A stretch of DNA of 64,000 nt from Candidatus Thorarchaeota archaeon (GTDB taxonomy: Archaea; Asgardarchaeota; Thorarchaeia; Thorarchaeales; Thorarchaeaceae): NCBI GenBank assembly GCA_046758445.1, contig JBHIAE010000002.1, positions 74,073 to 138,072 of the forward strand, given 5' to 3'. Below, piece after piece: positions 45,773 to 64,000 of this stretch. Numbering within the stretch: position 1 is the first letter of the stretch; every line of letters starts with the position of its first letter. The notes beneath the pieces are model-generated. The model worked only from the letters and a program-made list of their open reading frames with translations, ran no database searches and was not told where the DNA came from. Made by a program: the position numbers and the translations under genes.

Positions 45773-45879
45773 TGGTGGACCGGGCGAGATTCGAACTCGC
45801 GACCTTTCGGACATTCGATCTACCGGGCAAACCAGCAGGCTTGCGAACCGAACGATCTACCAGGCTGATCTACCGGCCC
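45773..45879 (-). tRNA. tRNA-Ala(CGC) with 30-nt intron (45812-45841), CCA encoded
   Basis: GGGCCGG/CCGGTCC acceptor with G3:U70; TTCGG-TTCGCA|intron|T-CCGAA; GTTCGAAT. Confidence 0.92.
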
Positions 45880-49482: not shown

Positions 49483-49512
49483 TCGACTGCAGACTCCCTG
49501 TAGTCGGGGAAA
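49483..49512 (+). other. 16S mini-intron 2 (30 nt, ~E. coli 1346)
   Basis: Splits GGAATCCCTA|GTATCCG; BHB with UCCC/GGGA helix, CGACTGCAG/CTGTAGTCG stem. Confidence 0.9.
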
Positions 49513-49552: not shown

Positions 49553-49582
49553 AGGGGACGTGAATCCCACGTACCCGGGGAA
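49553..49582 (+). other. 16S mini-intron 3 (30 nt, ~E. coli 1386)
   Basis: Splits GTCCCTGC|TTCTTGCACAC; CCCU/GGGG helix, ACGTG/CACGT stem. Confidence 0.88.
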
Positions 49583-49686
49583 TTCTTGCACACACCGCCC
49601 GTCGCTCCATGCGAGCGGCTTCTGGGTGAGGCGTTATCCTTTGGGTGATTACGAATCTGGGGGTCGCAAGTAGGGAGAAGTCGTAA

Positions 49687-49716
49687 CTGCGTCACACTTC
49701 GTGGCGTGGCGGAACA
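49687..49716 (+). other. 16S mini-intron 4 (30 nt, ~E. coli 1500)
   Basis: Splits AAGTCGTAA|CAAGG (junction ambiguous by +/-1); TGCGTCAC/GTGGCGTG stem. Confidence 0.88.
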
Positions 49717-49747
49717 CAAGGTATCCGTAGCGGAAGCTGCGGATGGA

Positions 49748-49778
49748 AGAAGTAGAGAGTCACTCTCGCTTCCATCAA
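49748..49778 (+). other. 16S mini-intron 5 (31 nt, just before the anti-Shine-Dalgarno)
   Basis: Splits CGGATGGA|TCACCTCCT; BHB GAUG/CAUC with GAA and AAU bulges, GAAG/CUUC and GAGAG/CUCUC stems. Confidence 0.9.
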
Positions 49779-49946
49779 TCACCTCCTATGTTTTCTACTT
49801 CATAGAGGTAGAAGCAGCTTGCTTGCAGTCCCTCGGGACTGCGAGAGAAGTACGGGCCTTCGACGACGGGGAATGCGGTGCAATCGTGACAGGTTGCCCA
49901 AGGCACGGGAACTTGCCCTAGCCGCTCACTGTTGAGCACCCTTTTC
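49769..49946 (+). repeat. 16S 3' end + processing trailer, copy A (resident)
   Basis: Homologous to 55094-55272; pairs with the 5' leader. Confidence 0.9.
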
Positions 49947-55314: not shown

Positions 55315-58300
55315 CTACATCTTCTTCTCTATCCTTCTCTTCAGAGCCTCGACCCTCTTGAATCGTTCCTTATCACTATCCGCTTTCCATCTTCGAAGAC
55401 GTTCTTCAAGAATCTCAAGACTGTCTACCACAGCCGAGTGAGCAGCTTGAAGGTTTCTCTTTTTCAGATGAAACTTGGTCAGTTCTTCTAGAATGTCTGC
55501 AATCTCCTCCGAGAGCTCGGGGTCGTCCAAGGTCTTCTTCTTCAGTTCGAGTAATGCCTCAAGGTCACCCTCACTGTCATGTTCTCCCTTGGCAGTTGTC
55601 AGATGTTCAGTGTGAATAGCAACTAGAATGGACTCCATGTCATCAATCAACGAGTCGTAGTTCCGAACCCTCTCTTCCGGTTCTTCTCCTTCCCCAAAAT
55701 ACCCTGTGACAATGTTCTCAATATCATTAATTGCATTGCTGAGGGCAGTCTGCACATCCATCTCAATGCTCAAAGATGTGATCAGCCATGAGTAGACCTG
55801 CTCGCCAGTAGCATCAGAGATAGCTGATAAGACAACTCCGATACCATCCCTATCCCTTCTGACTGAACACTCGAGTTTCTCATGATCCATCCAAAGAAAG
55901 GTACCAGGGAGCAATCGTTTCAGACCAAGCTGTCTGGCAATACGGCTGCTCTCTCTATAGACCCCACCCTCACGTGATGCAAGGTCGTTCTCAAACTCTA
56001 GATCTAGTGCATATCGTGATCCTTCGAGAAACACTTCTCGTGCCGCGAGAAGACTTGATACATCTTGGTCATTGAGAGGCTTATCAAAGAGTGCGTTGAA
56101 GTCAGCAGGTCTTGTACTGCTTTCAGGTCTAAGCACCCAACATGTGCCGTGAGTTTCTGCTGAGCCATCCACGAGAGGGCATCTATTCTCATCATGTGCT
56201 ATTATGACAGACATCTTTCTAGGCACTTGTTCTGCCAACTCCTGACTGGTCAGGGGAAGAGGAACACTTGCGTGGACAAATGGTGTCTTTCTCTCTACAT
56301 AGGGTCTGAGTAGCTGCAGTTCAGCATATTCGATATCCCTGTAAGGATCCCATGTGAAGTAGACATTTGGACTCTTTGTGCTCTGCAGTGGTATACCATC
56401 AACCAACGGTCTACGTAGAATGCGAAGCAAGTCTGAGGTTTGCTCAGAATATCTGATGTCAAGTTTTTCCCCATTAGACTTGATGTTGATAGAATATGTC
56501 CCAGAGTCAATACCGAGTTCACACTGAACACTAATGATGTGTTGTTTCATTTGACCAATTTCCAGGAACTCGTTTTCAATCCTGTTTGGCAAGTCCGTTG
56601 GAATAGTCACTCCTGCAGGGACTTCTGGAATTCTGGATGAAGACATTGGTACTACCTGCAAACCTCTGATGTTCGTTATTGCACTCTTCTTTCTCGGAAT
56701 GATCACAAGCTCACCCAAAAGGTTCCAATTCCCCTCTGCAAAGAACCATACATACTCTGTCCCCTCCATCTTGCAGGTCAATAGACTATGGACTTCTTGA
56801 GGTTCCACAGTTGAAGCATGGTCCGCAATCTCACTGGCGTTCGACTCTGACCAACGAATTGATGAACCTGGATCCAATGGGTTCATACCAATCCAGAGAC
56901 CTGAACGAAGACGGTTCTGGTCATAGTGGTCCTCGAGGAATACCCAGTGTTCGTAGCCATCCCCACTTGGAGCCACCAGAAGCTGACCATACCTGACTGC
57001 TGACTGTACAGGCAGAGGTATTTGAGATAGGACTGAGGCTCTCTTGCAGAGGTTAGACCAAACAGCTCTGACATCGAACTTCGGTCTTGCAACTTCTGAC
57101 ACATCTCTCAGATAGAACCCGACCTGTCTTAGGTGCCAAGACTTCATCGTCATCCAAAGACTCTGAATCTGTTCAACCGGAAGGTCCGGATATTTCCTTG
57201 TCAGTGCCGCTAGCAGGAGAATCAAGTAGTTCCCATACAGGCTCGTGACATATGGTCTACTCTCAAGAAGCATCTCCAGCTGGTCCTGCTCATTCAATCG
57301 AAGACAAACGCCGAGTCTTCTCTCTCGAAACCATTGCATCGAGCCCCAGAGGTCAGAGGTCGCAGCATGGACCATAAACAGCTCTGAAACCCTGTTCAGG
57401 TCATCCAAAGCAGGCTGGACTCCCTTTGCAGGAATGATGCGCTCCAGCTGTTTGAGAAGGTCCAGCCAAGACACATCTGTCGCCCAAGACTCTTTTTGTC
57501 TGACAAGAAGTTTCAGAACCTGTCTGAGCCGTCGAAGCTCCACATTTCGGGCAGTCTGTTCCCTCAGGCTTCTGAACTCAAGGTGTGACTCATCAGGTGC
57601 TCTATAGGTCTGAGTGTTCAGAGTCCTCCGTTTCATTCGACGATATCGCCTGTAGTGCCGAGGGTGAGTGATTGTTTCATTGGGTATCAGTTGTTGATGA
57701 GAAACATAACCTCTCTTCCCCTTTGCTCTCGTTACTCTAGCACGATACCTCACCCTCGCCATGATACTCTTTGGCTTCATGGGTTTTCCATAGAGTGGTA
57801 TGACCTGGGAAGAGAGTGTGATACCATCTCTTTCCATCATCTTCTTACAGATGTTTGGATGAAGGACACAGAGCCAAGGAATGAGGTCGATTGAATCCTT
57901 GATCAGTTCTTCCCCAAGCTCGTTCATCCTGATGATGTCCTCAGCAGAGAGAGCATCACGCCCTCGATCTCCAGTGTGTCCCTTCTTCCTGCCTGTTCGC
58001 TTACTCTTCTTACTCCAGAAGCGTGCTGACCAGTTCTCAAGTATAGGCACTTCAATCAACTCTGTTTTGACTGACTCTCTTGTTTGTTTGACAATCACTC
58101 TCAGGTCATCGAGCATTGGTGTGGTCTGGACTGAGGTGTAAGGTCTGACTGGAAGATTCCAGACAATGTCCGTGACATGTAACCTGTGTTTAGATGAGTT
58201 CCAGAATGGGAGTAAGCAACGACTATGATACTTCTCTGACGTCCGCTCATCAGGTCTTGGCTGAAGGAACCAGACAGATGTGCTTCCTGTCTTGCTGATT

Positions 58301-60468
58301 TCCTGAATCATGTACCTCTCAAGCTCCTCCAACACTGGTCTGAGCCTTGGAGGGAGAGAGTCCTCAATCCACTGCCATCCACTGATAACGACAATACCCT
58401 TGGTAGATAGTGACTCAATCTCTGGGTGGTTTCCTCCTTGGAACAGGAACTGTTCAATGCTATGTGACATATCAATAATCTTGATGTTATCAAAGAAGGA
58501 TTGGACACCCTTTTCATGGCATGAGAGTCTGAGTCGCTTCTTGACTAGCTCATCATGACTGAATTCTCCAGAGAGATCCAGCCAAGTGATTGGTGTATTG
58601 TCACGCCATGAACTCAACTTCTGAAGATAGTGTAATCCATGCCAGTATCTAGCCAACCAAGCCGCTGTGAATCCTGAATTAGATGCTGATTTTGCACTTA
58701 GATACAGGATATGCCTTGTAGCGGTGTCCTGAACCTCTGAGAAGGGATCGAACTTGTCTTCGGTTTCCTGCGGGTTTTTCTCTGACTCCAATACTGTGAA
58801 CTGGTCCTCTGATAGTGAGTGGATGACCAAAGCCGCCCTCTGAGCAATAGGGTCCTTGGACCGGATGAGTAGCCTGTCACATCCTTTCAGCTTGCTCTTC
58901 AAAGAATGATCTTCTACCAAGATGTCCAGAAGCGAACGAACAACAGTCCGATTCAGTCCTATATCGAACTGAGTGTCTAGTAGGACAATCCCCTTGAGGA
59001 TATCTGGGAGCGACTCATCTCCTGTGAGTCTACGATACTCCTCCACAAGTCCGCCTGCATATAGACTCAATTGCTGAACGTCATCATCCTCAGGGACTTC
59101 AACAAGGGCATCATTCCACTCCTCATCTGTCATTCCTCTCTTCCTGACAATAAATCTTGGGACAGTCTTGTTTCTCTTCCCCTTCGATTTCTCGGTCCGA
59201 ATCTCCCAATCGAAGCTGGTCCGTGTCTTCATGTCAAAGACAGCAACCGGTTTCATTACAACCAGTTGCCCCGGTTTCTTTGGATTTGTAATCATAGTCC
59301 TGACAAACAGACCGAGGTCTATTCGACCAGGTCCCTCACCTGTTCCTAGTCGTGACTCGCCCACAAGAAGGTAGTCTTCGCCGGGCTGGAGAAAACGATC
59401 TCCTCTCAGGACTACTGACTCTGCAGTGTAAGTCTGTGGCAGTCCATCCGTGATGAGTCTGTGATACCTGATTCCCTCATATCGAGCTTTGTTCCTCACG
59501 ATTTTATACAGGTGTCTAGCATCCTGCGCCTTCAGCTTTGGATTCTTCTTTGGTGTGAGTTCCTTGAGAAACCGCGTCCATGTCTGTAGTTTTCGAGCTT
59601 CCTCCTTGGGCACTTTTCTGCTGGCTTGTTGAAGCTCTGTTATCTGATATTGAAAGAACTTCTCATCTAGAGGTTTATCATCACCTGTTCTAGTCCTTGA
59701 TGGGAAGACCTGCTTAGACGAACCTGTAACATACAGACCGTTCAGCTCGTCAACAAGTTCTCTAAGAATCTCATCAGCACACTTCTCCTTGACACTCGCT
59801 CTGGGACGCAGAAAATGACTGCTCCCAAGTTTGGTGTCTGCATAGATGTAGTCGACAAAAGGGGCAAGACGACGGATGAGTAGGAGTGCATATGAATCAA
59901 AGTCATTGGGGGGAACACCAAAGATTAAGGACTTGCGACACAACTCACGCCCATGAGACCGTATCATATCTGCAAGATCAAGCTCTGCCAAGTCCGCCCC
60001 ATGTGCAACGGGCACAGGACCAACTTCGTCGCTGGTGTATCCCCAGATGGTCTTTCTCTTCTGTTGTCCAATCTTTACTGGGGTTTCAAGTGGATACATC
60101 AGCAGGAAGTAATCTCTAAGTTTGGCTCCAAAGATGTTGATGAGCTTGTTTAACGGTCCAACAATTCCCTCTCTCTCGTTTCTCACTCGTTTGGTTTCGG
60201 TGTTTCCATAACTGGCTGTTGTTTCCCATATGTTCTCTAATTCTAGATCTCGAAGTCGTTTCTCTCTATCAGCAACAGGTGAGAAGTCAGGTTGTCCTTG
60301 TCTAAGACTTGTGTTCCACTTCTTGAGAGCAGCATCCAGTCGATTTTGCGCCTTTGAATACAGATGCTTTGTATCTTTGTTTGTACGTTCACGTAGCAAA
60401 CTCACTAGTGCTTTCAAACCAATGGTGTGTGCCTGAACCACTGTTTTTCCAGGATCTTCTGGAAACAC
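55315..60468 (-). CDS. 1717-aa unknown protein with a RecB/Cas4-like PD-(D/E)XK nuclease motif
   Basis: GRIDLG...VFDMKT...QQLSLY motif order; long intact ORF; paralog remnant nearby. Confidence 0.75.
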   Translation of the reverse strand: MFPEDPGKTVVQAHTIGLKALVSLLRERTNKDTKHLYSKAQNRLDAALKKWNTSLRQGQPDFSPVADREKRLRDLELENIWETTASYGNTETKRVRNEREGIVGPLNKLINIFGAKLRDYFLLMYPLETPVKIGQQKRKTIWGYTSDEVGPVPVAHGADLAELDLADMIRSHGRELCRKSLIFGVPPNDFDSYALLLIRRLAPFVDYIYADTKLGSSHFLRPRASVKEKCADEILRELVDELNGLYVTGSSKQVFPSRTRTGDDKPLDEKFFQYQITELQQASRKVPKEEARKLQTWTRFLKELTPKKNPKLKAQDARHLYKIVRNKARYEGIRYHRLITDGLPQTYTAESVVLRGDRFLQPGEDYLLVGESRLGTGEGPGRIDLGLFVRTMITNPKKPGQLVVMKPVAVFDMKTRTSFDWEIRTEKSKGKRNKTVPRFIVRKRGMTDEEWNDALVEVPEDDDVQQLSLYAGGLVEEYRRLTGDESLPDILKGIVLLDTQFDIGLNRTVVRSLLDILVEDHSLKSKLKGCDRLLIRSKDPIAQRAALVIHSLSEDQFTVLESEKNPQETEDKFDPFSEVQDTATRHILYLSAKSASNSGFTAAWLARYWHGLHYLQKLSSWRDNTPITWLDLSGEFSHDELVKKRLRLSCHEKGVQSFFDNIKIIDMSHSIEQFLFQGGNHPEIESLSTKGIVVISGWQWIEDSLPPRLRPVLEELERYMIQEISKTGSTSVWFLQPRPDERTSEKYHSRCLLPFWNSSKHRLHVTDIVWNLPVRPYTSVQTTPMLDDLRVIVKQTRESVKTELIEVPILENWSARFWSKKSKRTGRKKGHTGDRGRDALSAEDIIRMNELGEELIKDSIDLIPWLCVLHPNICKKMMERDGITLSSQVIPLYGKPMKPKSIMARVRYRARVTRAKGKRGYVSHQQLIPNETITHPRHYRRYRRMKRRTLNTQTYRAPDESHLEFRSLREQTARNVELRRLRQVLKLLVRQKESWATDVSWLDLLKQLERIIPAKGVQPALDDLNRVSELFMVHAATSDLWGSMQWFRERRLGVCLRLNEQDQLEMLLESRPYVTSLYGNYLILLLAALTRKYPDLPVEQIQSLWMTMKSWHLRQVGFYLRDVSEVARPKFDVRAVWSNLCKRASVLSQIPLPVQSAVRYGQLLVAPSGDGYEHWVFLEDHYDQNRLRSGLWIGMNPLDPGSSIRWSESNASEIADHASTVEPQEVHSLLTCKMEGTEYVWFFAEGNWNLLGELVIIPRKKSAITNIRGLQVVPMSSSRIPEVPAGVTIPTDLPNRIENEFLEIGQMKQHIISVQCELGIDSGTYSINIKSNGEKLDIRYSEQTSDLLRILRRPLVDGIPLQSTKSPNVYFTWDPYRDIEYAELQLLRPYVERKTPFVHASVPLPLTSQELAEQVPRKMSVIIAHDENRCPLVDGSAETHGTCWVLRPESSTRPADFNALFDKPLNDQDVSSLLAAREVFLEGSRYALDLEFENDLASREGGVYRESSRIARQLGLKRLLPGTFLWMDHEKLECSVRRDRDGIGVVLSAISDATGEQVYSWLITSLSIEMDVQTALSNAINDIENIVTGYFGEGEEPEERVRNYDSLIDDMESILVAIHTEHLTTAKGEHDSEGDLEALLELKKKTLDDPELSEEIADILEELTKFHLKKRNLQAAHSAVVDSLEILEERLRRWKADSDKERFKRVEALKRRIEKKM

Positions 60469-60718
60469 CAGACTAACTCCTGAATCAAACTAAGCGGGTT
60501 TTTCCCTTTTCTATTTTGCTTGAAACCTGAAACTTCCACATTTTGAACCTCAAATTAGAAATACGTTTAATAAATTTAAATATGATTCTGTATCAAATAA
60601 AGTGTGGAGAATATCAAGCAACCTCCGAGAAATGAGGTTGAGTGAAACTCCCCGACCGGAAACGGGTCGGAAATTTAAATATGTGAGGTTAAATCTCGTG
60701 GGTCGCTCCAGTGGCGTG

Positions 60719-62368
60719 ATGATAACGGTCAAGGTCCCTGTGAAATGGGATGTGATGACAGACAGACAGAAGACACGTCTGTCCAGAATCACAAGTCGGG
60801 ATACCAGAGTCATCAAGGCCTATCTTGGAGTGATTGAGAAACACGAGAGAAACCTCCTTGTTGGAAAGAACAAGAAACGACTTGATGCAGGGAAGATAGA
60901 CGAACTAACATTATGCACGGATACAAGAACAGTTCTTCACGATTTCAAAGACAGATTCCCGAACATCTCAACGAACGAACTGCAGGAGTGTAGAGAGACT
61001 GCCATCGGAATGTGGAGGGTGTATCTCGCACTTGGTAGAAACAAACCACTACAGGGTACAGGGTACAGGTCAAAGAAGTTACCCCGTCACATGTTCACCC
61101 GGATGTTCAAGTTCACCTATACTCCTGAGAAAGAGATCAAACACTGGCTGATTTTTCGTGACTCGCTAGATTCAGTGAGAGAAGGAAGAAAGACTCATGA
61201 CAGGTTGGCAACACCTCTGAGTCCTTCATCATATCATCTCAATCGTCTGAAGTCTGGTGAGGTCAAATCTATCCAGATTGTGAAAGACAGGAATCGGAAG
61301 TGGTGGGTTCTTTTCAAGGTGAAGGTGAACTCAGAGTCTTTAGACGACGAATCAAAACCGTTCGCAGTGATTGGTATTGACTTGGGAATAAAGAAGGCAG
61401 TCTGTTCAGTAGTGCTGACCAAGAAAGGACTTCGACATGTAAGATATTGGACTGATAGAGAGAAGGCAAAACACATCGAAGGCTATGATAGGATGGTGGC
61501 CAGTCTTCAACAGAAGAGGGACTCTTCTCTCCATTCTGACGATGTCACAAGACGACTCCGAACAATCAGTTCAAGACGTGAGAACATCAGTTTTGACTAT
61601 GACCGTGTCCTTGTGAAAAGACTCGCTGAGCATATTCTCGAACTATCGCAAGAGTTTGACCTCTATGTTTCGATTGGCAAGTTGAAGGGAATCCGTAATC
61701 GTGCTAGGAAAGGTGATGGAAAAGGTCGTCGGTTTCGCGGCATGATAAACAGATGGTCTTTTGCTCGAATCACTAACTCTCTTCAGCACAAGCTCAGTAT
61801 GAGTGGATTCGACCCGAAGAGAGTCCATGCAGTATCAGAGGCATGGACAAGCATCAAGTGTCACAAGTGTGGGTCAAAAGGATACAGACCAAAACAGAGC
61901 TACTTTCTCTGTCACACCTGTGGATATCGCGACAACGCAGACAAGAACGCTGCAATCAACATTGCTCTGCGTTTGATTAGGCTCATTCCCTCCTTGAGGG
62001 GTGAGAAAGGACTAGGGACTTGGTTCTCTAGATGGAAGACCTCCCCGAAGACCCAAAGGACTCGTTCTAAAGGGATGTCCTTAGCTCCTGAGAGTTCACT
62101 AGACTCGTCTGTAGGGAGCACCGTGGCTGACTGTCATGACCAGGCTTCTCTTGAGGAGTTTGCGAGCAGTACCGACCTAGCCATGGAAAAGACCATGGAA
62201 ACACCGCCTGCCATCACGGAATCTAGTGACCATGATAGTATAGTGCAGCGGACAGAAACTCAGTCTGTGAAGAGGAGTCATATTCCAGTGACTCACAGCA
62301 AAACTCGTGCACACCCAACAGGAGAGGTCCTGCTGGTCGCTGGTGACAGCAGTCATGAGGAGGGTTGA
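60719..62368 (+). CDS. tnpB: TnpB/Cas12f-like RNA-guided nuclease with rearranged RuvC-II and a C-terminal extension
   Basis: RuvC-I VIGIDLG, SIGKL, SEAWTS, CHKC/CHTC Zn ribbon, RuvC-III NADKNAAINI; start moved to the ATG after the TTTAAATA box. Confidence 0.9.
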   Translation: MITVKVPVKWDVMTDRQKTRLSRITSRDTRVIKAYLGVIEKHERNLLVGKNKKRLDAGKIDELTLCTDTRTVLHDFKDRFPNISTNELQECRETAIGMWRVYLALGRNKPLQGTGYRSKKLPRHMFTRMFKFTYTPEKEIKHWLIFRDSLDSVREGRKTHDRLATPLSPSSYHLNRLKSGEVKSIQIVKDRNRKWWVLFKVKVNSESLDDESKPFAVIGIDLGIKKAVCSVVLTKKGLRHVRYWTDREKAKHIEGYDRMVASLQQKRDSSLHSDDVTRRLRTISSRRENISFDYDRVLVKRLAEHILELSQEFDLYVSIGKLKGIRNRARKGDGKGRRFRGMINRWSFARITNSLQHKLSMSGFDPKRVHAVSEAWTSIKCHKCGSKGYRPKQSYFLCHTCGYRDNADKNAAINIALRLIRLIPSLRGEKGLGTWFSRWKTSPKTQRTRSKGMSLAPESSLDSSVGSTVADCHDQASLEEFASSTDLAMEKTMETPPAITESSDHDSIVQRTETQSVKRSHIPVTHSKTRAHPTGEVLLVAGDSSHEEG

Positions 62369-62415
62369 ACATGGAAGTTGATGGTGGAGAGATTTCACTC
62401 GCCTTTTCAGGTCGG
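62160..62415 (+). ncRNA. Putative omegaRNA/tracr-like scaffold overlapping the tnpB 3' end (5' boundary uncertain)
   Basis: CCGACCTA (62172-79) is complementary to the repeat TAGGTCGG; TnpB omegaRNAs typically overlap the gene 3' end. Confidence 0.55.
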
Positions 62416-62544
62416 ACTAGGGATTCCGGGTTTGACTTGATTTCCAATAGGTCGGACCTTGTTACGACTCTATTCGTGTTAGGTAAGCCTTTCGCAAGCA
62501 GGAGAATATCACCAATCCACACACGTCGGGGATCACCTCCTAAG
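62408..62544 (+). CRISPR. Non-canonical mini guide array: (AG)GTCGG repeats plus three 16S-matching spacers
   Basis: GTCGG at 62411, 62451 and 62525, followed by ACTAGGGATTCCGGGTT, ACCTTGTTACGACT and GGATCACCTCCTAAG. Confidence 0.8.
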
Positions 62545-62634
62545 ACAGAATATCTCTCAAGGATTCTGAGAGTTGGATATATAGCCATTAAATCATGAAG
62601 TATAGATGATTTCCTAGAAGATGAGGGAAATAGA

Positions 62635-63651
62635 ATGAATCGTAAGAATAGGATGGGATTAATCAAGAAGCTTGAAAATAACAGAGGCTCCAAGGTACTG
62701 GCGTATATTACTGGTGATAGGAGGGGGCTAGAAACCAAGATTGCTATGGATGTCTTTCCAATGTTTCACGAGCATCTTAGCCAGATTGGGAAACAGGATA
62801 GGATTGATCTCTTCATCTATAGTCCTGGCGGATTGACGATTGCAGGATATGCTCTAGTGAATCTCATTCGTGAGTTCTGCAATGACTTCAATGTCATCAT
62901 CCCATTCAAGGCTCTGAGCACAGCAACTATCATCGCTCTTGGGGCTAATGAGGTTCTAATGACACCTATGGGACAACTAAGTCCTATAGATCCATCAGTT
63001 GAGCATCCATTGGGTCCTATTGTCCAGATTCCTGGTCAAGCCCGTGGTGGAATAGCCCCGGTAAATGTAGAAGATGTAAATGCATTCGTTGACTTGGCTA
63101 GAAAGGAAATCGGGCTAAGGGAAGAAGAATCCATGAAGAAGGTCTTTGAGCTTTTGGCTGAGAAGATACACCCTCTAGTTCTAGGAGCAGTTCATAGATC
63201 ACGTGAGCAGATTGGTTTCTTGGCTTCAAACCTGATGAAGTACCACTGCAATGATGAAAATCAAATTGAAAATGTAGTCAACGTTCTGACAAGAGAGCGT
63301 TTCTCTCACAATTACATCATAAGTCGTAGAGAGGCTAAAGAGAATCTATGTTTGAACATAATCGAACCAGATGAAGAACAGACTGAGATTATTGTTGACT
63401 TGTTCAATGCATATGAACAGATACTCAAGCTGAGTGTTCCTTATCATCCCGAAACTACCTTAGGTGATCAAGAGGTCGGTTCAGCTGTGTTCAACAGAGG
63501 AATTATAGAATCAGCAAATATGACACATGTATTTAGGACCAACAAAGAGATAAGAAGAGCTGAGGTAAGACAACCAGGAATTCCAGTTCCAGTCTATGCG
63601 TATCCTGAGCGGCTCATTCAAGAAGGATGGCTTGTCGATAACGAATTATAA
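62635..63651 (+). CDS. SDH family ClpP-fold serine protease
   Basis: IDLFIYSPGG, KALSTAT, LSPIDP, SHNYII. Confidence 0.85.
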   Translation: MNRKNRMGLIKKLENNRGSKVLAYITGDRRGLETKIAMDVFPMFHEHLSQIGKQDRIDLFIYSPGGLTIAGYALVNLIREFCNDFNVIIPFKALSTATIIALGANEVLMTPMGQLSPIDPSVEHPLGPIVQIPGQARGGIAPVNVEDVNAFVDLARKEIGLREEESMKKVFELLAEKIHPLVLGAVHRSREQIGFLASNLMKYHCNDENQIENVVNVLTRERFSHNYIISRREAKENLCLNIIEPDEEQTEIIVDLFNAYEQILKLSVPYHPETTLGDQEVGSAVFNRGIIESANMTHVFRTNKEIRRAEVRQPGIPVPVYAYPERLIQEGWLVDNEL

Positions 63652-63662
63652 GGTGTGGTTCG

Positions 63663-63857
63663 TTGGAAGAAGAGAAGAAGAAACTCCCCGTGTTTGAAAC
63701 CTCAAATACGAGTGGGCTCACTTCCATTCAACAACTAACAGATGACACTCCGAATGAAGTCTTTACAATCAGGCATAGCACATCCGGGACAGAAACTGTG
63801 CTTTTAGTGGAGCCTCCTGAAGAGGCAGAGGAGCAAGAAGAAACAGATGAAGAATGA
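63663..63857 (+). CDS. Small acidic hypothetical protein
   Basis: ORF after a GGTG RBS-like motif; Glu-rich tail. Confidence 0.45.
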   Translation: MEEEKKKLPVFETSNTSGLTSIQQLTDDTPNEVFTIRHSTSGTETVLLVEPPEEAEEQEETDEE

Positions 63858-63892
63858 ATTCCATCTTCATTAAATGACATTTCAACAATGTA

Positions 63893-63971
63893 GAGAGAAG
63901 TGTAGGCGGCGGTGATAGAGAGATTGGGGATCTGCCCTTCTGTCACTGTTGAGCACCCTTTCTCTTTTGCA
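63893..63971 (+). repeat. Partial 16S trailer, copy D
   Basis: GAGAGAAGT...GCGGTG...TGCCCT...TCACTGTTGAGCACCCTTT matches copy A. Confidence 0.8.
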
Positions 63972-64000
63972 CTCATCTATCCGTACTAGCATAATCATTA

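Follow-up and report, generated by a model that had tools for sequence, protein, structure and literature searches.

The window, by which we mean the whole stretch of 64,000 nucleotides (nt) of Candidatus Thorarchaeota DNA analysed here, contains on its plus strand a tnpB gene (60719-62368), whose 3′ end and downstream flank carry four short related motifs. The gene product of 549 amino acids was assigned to Pfam family PF07282 (Cas12f1-like TNB domain, E-value 3e-13), aligns with TnpB/Cas12f chains of the PDB (E-value 3e-9) and has the RuvC-fold and zinc-finger (TNB) domain of TnpB/omegaRNA systems. Approximately ten tnpB paralogs with amino acid identities of 45–59% are found in the host genome (3.25 Mb, 92.7% complete). 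An earlier note on this DNA had pointed out the motifs, and their positions were confirmed: CCGACCTA at 62172-79, CAGGTCGG at 62408-15, TAGGTCGG at 62448-55 and ACGTCGG at 62523-29, the last three of which (repeats 1 to 3 in the following) start 40 and then 74–75 nt apart. On the same strand, a 16S ribosomal RNA (rRNA) gene (48135 to about 49790; Rfam SSU_rRNA_archaea, 1191 bits) is the presumed target of the system. As seen in the sequence, its 3′ domain holds four hairpin inserts of approximately 30 nt, I_A (49483-49512), I_B (49553-49582), I_C (49686-49715) and I_D (49747-49777), and each of them is polymorphic, as some related genomes have it and others lack it.

Among the paralogs, nucleotide conservation sets in some 250 nt short of where the gene region ends and carries on beyond the stop codon. 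Using this conservation and an RNAalifold consensus, a putative omegaRNA scaffold was delimited at 62170-62415 on the plus strand, which would cover the last 65 or so codons of tnpB and extend 47 nt beyond its stop codon. An Rfam scan of positions 59500-64000 gave no relevant match. Conservation and covarying helices together point to a structured RNA that overlaps the 3′ end of tnpB and has its guide at the 3′ terminus; directly after GGTCGG, the conservation of the scaffold ends and the matches to the target start. The earlier note had expected an omegaRNA scaffold to overlap the tnpB tail. As a correction, the scaffold does not stop ahead of the repeats: repeat 1 is its last element.

The anti-repeat (62172-62178, plus strand; CCGACC plus T) is predicted to form the 5′ strand, and repeat 1 (62408-62415, plus strand) the 3′ strand, of a helix closing this scaffold. 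In this helix of 6–7 base pairs (bp), CCGACC (62172-77) would pair with GGTCGG (62410-15) over a distance of approximately 230 nt, immediately before the guide. The strand pairs differ clade by clade (CCGACC/GGTCGG, AAGACC/GGTCTT, and ATGACC/GGTCAT or GGTTAT), and the two variable helix positions change together: they are CC-GG in the window's clade and one other, AA-TT, or AT-AT or AG elsewhere. Independent double changes of C to T and G to A also occur, and position 2 of the helix is C-G in 17, A-T in 11 and T-A in 32 of 67 homologous scaffolds. When the 3′ strands of these 67 related loci were shuffled 5000 times, 321 ± 5 of 402 cells were paired, compared with 371 in the actual alignment, a value that no shuffle reached. 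RNAalifold also recovered the closing helix after the alignment had been trimmed to the span, and an unconstrained fold of 62168-62550 pairs 62172-77 with 62415-10 in the prediction. The comparative data thus indicate that the pairing of anti-repeat and repeat 1 is a real and conserved feature, which closes the scaffold and abuts the guide. The covariation bears out the view of the earlier note that the upstream motif is an anti-repeat: it is the 5′ strand of a long-range helix whose 3′ strand is repeat 1. Compensatory changes of the kind expected for trans-activating CRISPR RNAs (tracrRNAs; CRISPR, clustered regularly interspaced short palindromic repeats) were found for repeat 1, while repeats 2 and 3 are connected to the anti-repeat through their sequence identity to repeat 1 only. 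The closing helix presumably occupies a place like that of the repeat:anti-repeat duplex in Cas12f guides and of the pairing next to the guide in the omegaRNA of ISDra2.

A further conserved motif, TTCACTC(A/G) at 62394-62401 (plus strand), lies in the loop of the terminal scaffold hairpin, the arms of which pair in the paralog clades. The seven bases after a conserved GAAGTT and the seven before the next conserved block are paired in 277 of 343 cells (249.5 ± 5.3 after shuffling), and adjacent registers reach only 42–45%. 3′ of this hairpin follow A-A-Y and then a block of GGTC plus two bases, whose partner, two bases plus GACC, lies upstream. TTCACTC(A/G)CC had been considered as the end of the scaffold, but this assignment was dropped after 80 more loci had been added, as the wider alignments place the motif in the hairpin loop. 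In the sections considered of Altae-Tran et al. (2023; PMC10691335), a group of Asgard TnpBs is described whose genes are followed by a conserved GTTCACTCA motif, and the variable stretch ahead of the motif is suggested there as a possible guide. This stretch pairs with the sequence after the motif and is, therefore, a helix strand.

Each repeat is followed by sequence that matches the 16S gene of the window after removal of the inserts, in both orientations. Guide 1 (type A, 62416-62432, plus strand) is the reverse complement of insert-free 16S across I_A (16 of 17 positions), and its unit is kept in eight loci. Repeat 2 (TAGGTCGG, plus strand) forms the last 8 nt of the type-A unit. It is followed by guide 2 (type C, 62456-62472, plus strand), the first 14 nt of which (62456-69) are the reverse complement of insert-free 16S across I_C (14/14). 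Repeat 3 (62523-62529, plus strand) is imperfect, its orthologous copy in locus L049 being GGTCGG. Guide 3 (type D, 62530-62542, plus strand) is a sense copy of the 16S 3′ end across I_D (13/13). In the insert-free gene, CGGAT stands immediately 5′ of all three target sites; both strands together (ca. 3.1 kb) contain only nine copies of this pentamer. Orthologous loci have a fourth unit type (B) across the second insert site, the target of which is preceded by AGAAT. In silico, a motif 5′ of the target was thus found for all four types, CGGAT three times and AGAAT once. CGGAT behaves as a target-adjacent motif (TAM), and the guides look like TnpB guides as far as their sequences go. From the 16S matches and CGGAT it follows that the guide starts right after GGTCGG. 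The inserts interrupt the three CGGAT-flanked sites 2, 7 and 2 nt in, so that the cell's own gene is not a match.

Since GGTCGG is not enriched in the window (27 occurrences, 21 ± 4 expected, 27 being reached in 10 of 100 shuffles), the motif count alone proves nothing and only the context gives it meaning. The lack of over-representation would agree with a chance recurrence of short, G+C-rich words near tnpB. This explanation is, however, contradicted by the covariation, the 16S match behind every copy, the common CGGAT and the recurrence in 15 loci, and we consider it extremely improbable. Chance-level matches of 12–14 nt were all that the guides of eight other paralogs gave against their own genome.

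In the 15 loci of the window's clade (clade 1), which come from genomes and metagenomes, the number of units varies from one to four, with four main types (A–D) in varying order: A-C-D, B-D, A-D, A-B-D, B-C-D, A-C, B-A-C, C-A-D and single units. The suggestion of the earlier note that the repeats head guide-like units agrees with this picture, in which such units are both conserved and shuffled among related genomes. Type C, for instance, opens the array in L057 and L178 and is the second unit of the window, L049 and L169, and type D is always last, continuing more than 80 nt into the 16S trailer in L050. Perfect GGTCGG was counted in 14 of the 20 non-first repeats of the clade-1 arrays. Multi-unit arrays are obvious only in this 16S-directed clade; in other clades, a crude regular-expression count of downstream repeats gave a weak enrichment (0.83 versus 0.33 per kb).

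These arrays allow two interpretations of the downstream units. In the first, only the closing helix and unit 1 work, and units 2 and 3 are decaying relics of earlier guides, pushed downstream as a new scaffold end with its guide was gained by tandem duplication or by recombination between tnpB copies. Part of a duplicated scaffold indeed persists between units in L178 and L058, a hint that guides may be acquired through tandem duplication or recombination; degenerate downstream units are seen in L053, L058, L170, L050, L056 and L178, every first unit being intact; and repeat 3 of the window is imperfect. Yet the eight type-A units, each exactly 40 nt long, are conserved to 98% at guide bases 1–12 and to 97% in the last 8 nt, i.e., in the repeat before the next guide, compared with 72% in the linker (bases 21–32). 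Likewise, guide 2, repeat 3 (GGTCGG in L049) and its unchanged 3′ neighbour guide 3 are shared by the window and L049 despite linkers rearranged by substitutions and indels, and it would be unexpected for neutral erosion of duplicated scaffolds to stop at one and the same 8-nt stretch in the majority of some 20 cases. In our view, the relic explanation, the main rival, is possible but on balance doubtful. In the second interpretation, which we prefer, the downstream units would be functional guides served by the scaffold of guide 1, and the alignments show comparative signs of selection on downstream repeats and guides. Forced closure of the scaffold with repeats 1, 2 and 3 gave predicted energies of −119.9, −118.9 and −117.2 kcal/mol. 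The conservation of repeat and seed relative to the linkers and the nearly equal closure energies are indirect evidence, by which loading of guides 2 and 3 on the scaffold of guide 1 appears plausible and energetically feasible.

A connection between guides and inserts can be followed in several genomes. All four inserts and three intact guides are found in the window's genome. Genome G018, whose own 16S carries the second insert (I_B) only, has an intact type-B guide in first position, and its type-C and type-D units show a changed repeat and seed mismatches; I_C and I_D are absent from its 16S. The tnpB and 16S genes are located on one contig in G000, G007, G018, G019, G042 and G043, the distance ranging from approximately 380 nt behind the 16S gene (metagenome contig L170) up to about 11 kb.

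From these observations, a mechanism can be proposed. In a long primary transcript, any of the three repeats could close the scaffold, with whatever units lie ahead of it looped out, and one TnpB-scaffold complex could thereby present guide 1, 2 or 3. TnpB would then cleave 16S alleles without inserts, and their repair on the template of the linked, insert-bearing copy would spread or retain the inserts together with the neighbouring tnpB, which would amount to a homing-type drive. That 62170-62544 represents the 3′ portion of a TnpB omegaRNA gene with a three-unit guide array, whose scaffold can be closed by any repeat and which serves such a drive, is in our judgment an evenly balanced proposition. 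More tentatively, and with some doubt prevailing, the locus can be seen as a natural multiplexed omegaRNA in which a 6–7 nt anti-repeat picks among several guides by alternative pairing with minimal repeats, the array being aimed at insert-free sites of the host 16S gene. TnpB would in this case be a homing nuclease guided by RNA, with which both its own linked gene and small rRNA introns are driven or policed.

Several observations weigh against this proposal. In all of 14 loci, the guide in first position is intact (apart from a single seed mismatch in one of them), but approximately half of the guides further downstream are without their seed or retain only 8–10 matching bases, which fits weaker or no selection downstream. 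In the window, repeat 3 makes only 5 bp with the anti-repeat, and outside the repeat, the linkers do not resemble the scaffold significantly. The linker of unit C may be a decayed copy of the scaffold or of a left-end module, but the local alignment is not significant. Further, the type-A guide of G042 and G045 has a perfect 12-nt seed although their own 16S lacks I_A, which contradicts a strict rule that a guide implies the own insert, unless mismatches from position 13 on block cutting. The conservation figures given above overstate the independent support, as related loci share ancestry. Finally, the canonical catalytic D-E-D triad of RuvC is incomplete in the tnpB product: the aspartates of RuvC-I and RuvC-III are kept, but the glutamate of RuvC-II is replaced by glycine in 10 of 10 family members in the paralog and ortholog alignment. 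Concerning this residue, “rearranged” TnpB clades without the canonical RuvC-II glutamate, for which an alternative glutamate is presumed, are mentioned in the sections considered of PMC10691335, and a conserved glutamate in the motif PEAWTS is a candidate for this role in the aligned sequences.

A conserved element upstream of tnpB (60565-60683, plus strand), recognised in the paralog alignment, has to be discussed along with a third explanation. Two TATA-like boxes, which form a 13-nt direct repeat (D11) at 60572 and 60671, flank a structured stretch of approximately 85 nt ending in a hairpin (60652-70). The arms of this hairpin are CCGACC/GGTCGG as in the closing helix, with compensatory CTGACC/GGTCAG in paralogs, and GAGTGAA, which is complementary to the loop motif TTCACTC, likewise lies in the element. 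The element may represent a gene for a small RNA or the left end of a transposon; in a search for a local right-end hairpin and a left-end TAM, CGGAT was not found upstream of tnpB. An exact 11-nt word, GGAGAATATCA, is present both in the upstream element (60606-60616) and in the linker before repeat 3 (62501-62511). We also considered the repeats as target-site duplications or as copies of the 3′ arm of the upstream hairpin; the likeness is real, but this idea was rejected because it leaves the 16S matches unexplained.

In the third explanation, GGTCGG would be a DNA-level signal, the right-end cleavage or recognition site of a putative transposase (e.g., the Asgard Cas1-like enzyme linked to this TnpB group), the units would be flanks captured when cleavage skipped to a downstream look-alike site, and RNA pairing would be secondary. 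The matching arms of the upstream hairpin, which covary with the right end by clade, speak for such a site, and type D, in last place throughout and reaching far into the 16S trailer in L050, resembles a true flank. The sections considered of PMC10691335 also tie this Asgard TnpB group to a Cas1-like putative transposase. However, no Pfam match to a Y1 transposase (PF01797), a serine recombinase (PF00239) or Cas1 (PF01867) was obtained in the 92.7%-complete genome. Moreover, the 5′ partner of GGTCGG lies inside the scaffold and covaries as RNA helices do, and types A–C share just 14–27 nt with ribosomal DNA (rDNA) and span insert sites, so that they would be hard to gain as flanks of the present insert-bearing gene. 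We consider this explanation unlikely.

The surroundings of the locus provided some additional observations. Downstream of the array, a gene for a ClpP-like, SDH-type serine protease (62635-63651) is syntenic in G018, which belongs to a different genus, and this neighbour, used as synteny anchor, was not found in 15 genomes of the same genus; its distribution suggests that the stretch with tnpB and its neighbours moves as an island. Divergent from tnpB, an open reading frame of 1717 codons (55315-60468, minus strand) without any Pfam family above threshold is located to the left of tnpB in G007 and G023 as well. A transfer RNA (tRNA) gene at 45776-45879 (minus strand) gave an Rfam match of 104 nt to a model of 71 positions, so that it probably carries an intron of approximately 30 nt.

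Concerning the 16S gene, minimum-energy folds predict a clear bulge-helix-bulge-like junction for I_A only. The last 75 nt or so of the gene (49726-49800, including the fourth insert) recur at 85–90% identity five times on a contig of the same genome (C14) and once in the window at about 55094; similar copies of this 3′-terminal stretch exist in G023, G043 and G045. In the 16S genes belonging to L134 (G024) and L139 (G036), which are from other Thorarchaeota-related genomes, small inserts are found elsewhere, after GTGTCACTA and after TTGCACAC or GCCGTA, and the sites for small inserts in the 16S 3′ domain thus outnumber the four described here. The stretch behind the closing helix was also compared in other clades of the TnpB family (L104, L112, L124; L061, L064, L070, L072; L011, L069, L071, L076-L081). 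It resembles parts of tRNA genes (T-arm/acceptor or D-arm-like), and ARAGORN detected no whole tRNA there; in another clade, a conserved word starting with TGCATGCA and common to many genomes is found at this place. Such stretches may be guides against other conserved RNA genes.

We found no report in the literature of TnpB guide arrays or of a TnpB aimed at rRNA insert sites. If the proposal is true, the locus would show a way for a repeat-guide array to originate from a transposon RNA with a single guide, no adaptation machinery being involved. TnpB is regarded as the single-guide ancestor of Cas12, and the locus makes the open question of how several guides on one scaffold first originated testable. 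An RNA-guided nuclease would, furthermore, be tied to the puzzling small inserts of archaeal rRNA genes, offering a mechanism for their spread or retention and for their siting where 16S rRNA is most conserved. To tool builders, a closing helix of 6 bp with tolerance for looped-out inserts would suggest a compact route to multiplexed TnpB guides.

Among known systems, the locus is a TnpB/omegaRNA system of the Asgard group in PMC10691335. Like the Cas1-associated groups in the sections considered of that study, it comes from Thorarchaeota and has the GTTCACTCA motif behind its tnpB gene, and it shares the glycine in RuvC-II with the “rearranged” clades described there. In contrast to what is suggested there, the guide follows a further helix strand, and the genome gave no Pfam match to Cas1. 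Multi-unit arrays and 16S targets are not described in those sections. With TnpB and omegaRNA of the IS200/IS605 type, e.g., ISDra2 (Karvelis et al., 2021; PMC8612924), the locus shares a RuvC/zinc-finger nuclease, a guide RNA that extends over the 3′ end of the nuclease gene and carries the guide at its own 3′ end, directly behind the scaffold, a TAM 5′ of the target, and a target that is the sequence without the insertion. In contrast to this type, neither an association with TnpA nor signs of mobility were found, as the genome has no TnpA match and the tnpB locus stays fixed beside the 16S gene, in synteny with it, across genera. Up to four guide units exist instead of one, each headed by a 7–8 nt copy of the last helix strand of the scaffold, and the targets are insert-free sites in a host rRNA gene rather than the empty donor site of a transposon.

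The locus is not a CRISPR array. Its repeats of 7–8 nt at spacings of 40 and 74 nt lack the length (ca. 23–50 nt) and regularity of CRISPR repeats, and it also fails on adaptation genes (cas1/cas2; no match to PF01867) and on spacer origin, as all units match host 16S rDNA instead of foreign DNA. A CRISPR-like or evolutionary-intermediate status, as inferred in the earlier note, is not supported: the genome yielded no Pfam match to Cas1, the “spacers” form a closed set drawn from approximately four sites in 16S rDNA, and arrays are obvious only in the 16S-directed clade. According to the sections considered of PMC13565253, in which Jin et al. (Cell 2025) is cited, full CRISPR repeats are already present in the only described intermediates, TranC. 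As far as these sections go, TranC and type V CRISPR-Cas12 with a tracrRNA paired to a CRISPR RNA likewise combine a TnpB-derived nuclease with several guides per locus and a guide-adjacent repeat that pairs with an anti-repeat of the scaffold. They differ in that their repeats exceed 20 nt; at the locus described here, they are far shorter and irregularly spaced, the scaffold and the first guide form one continuous RNA gene, no adaptation genes were found, and the guides are a closed, self-derived set of about four.

Outside RNA-guided systems, the closest parallel is with homing endonucleases, namely those of archaeal rRNA introns and the free-standing ones of phages. They, too, are directed at a conserved gene in its form without the insert; the insert protects the own allele, and the linkage of nuclease gene and target lets repair co-convert both. 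In contrast to homing endonucleases, recognition at the Thorarchaeota locus would rely on guide RNA and be multiplexed, the gene for the nuclease is located outside the inserts, and these have a length of only approximately 30 nt and encode nothing.

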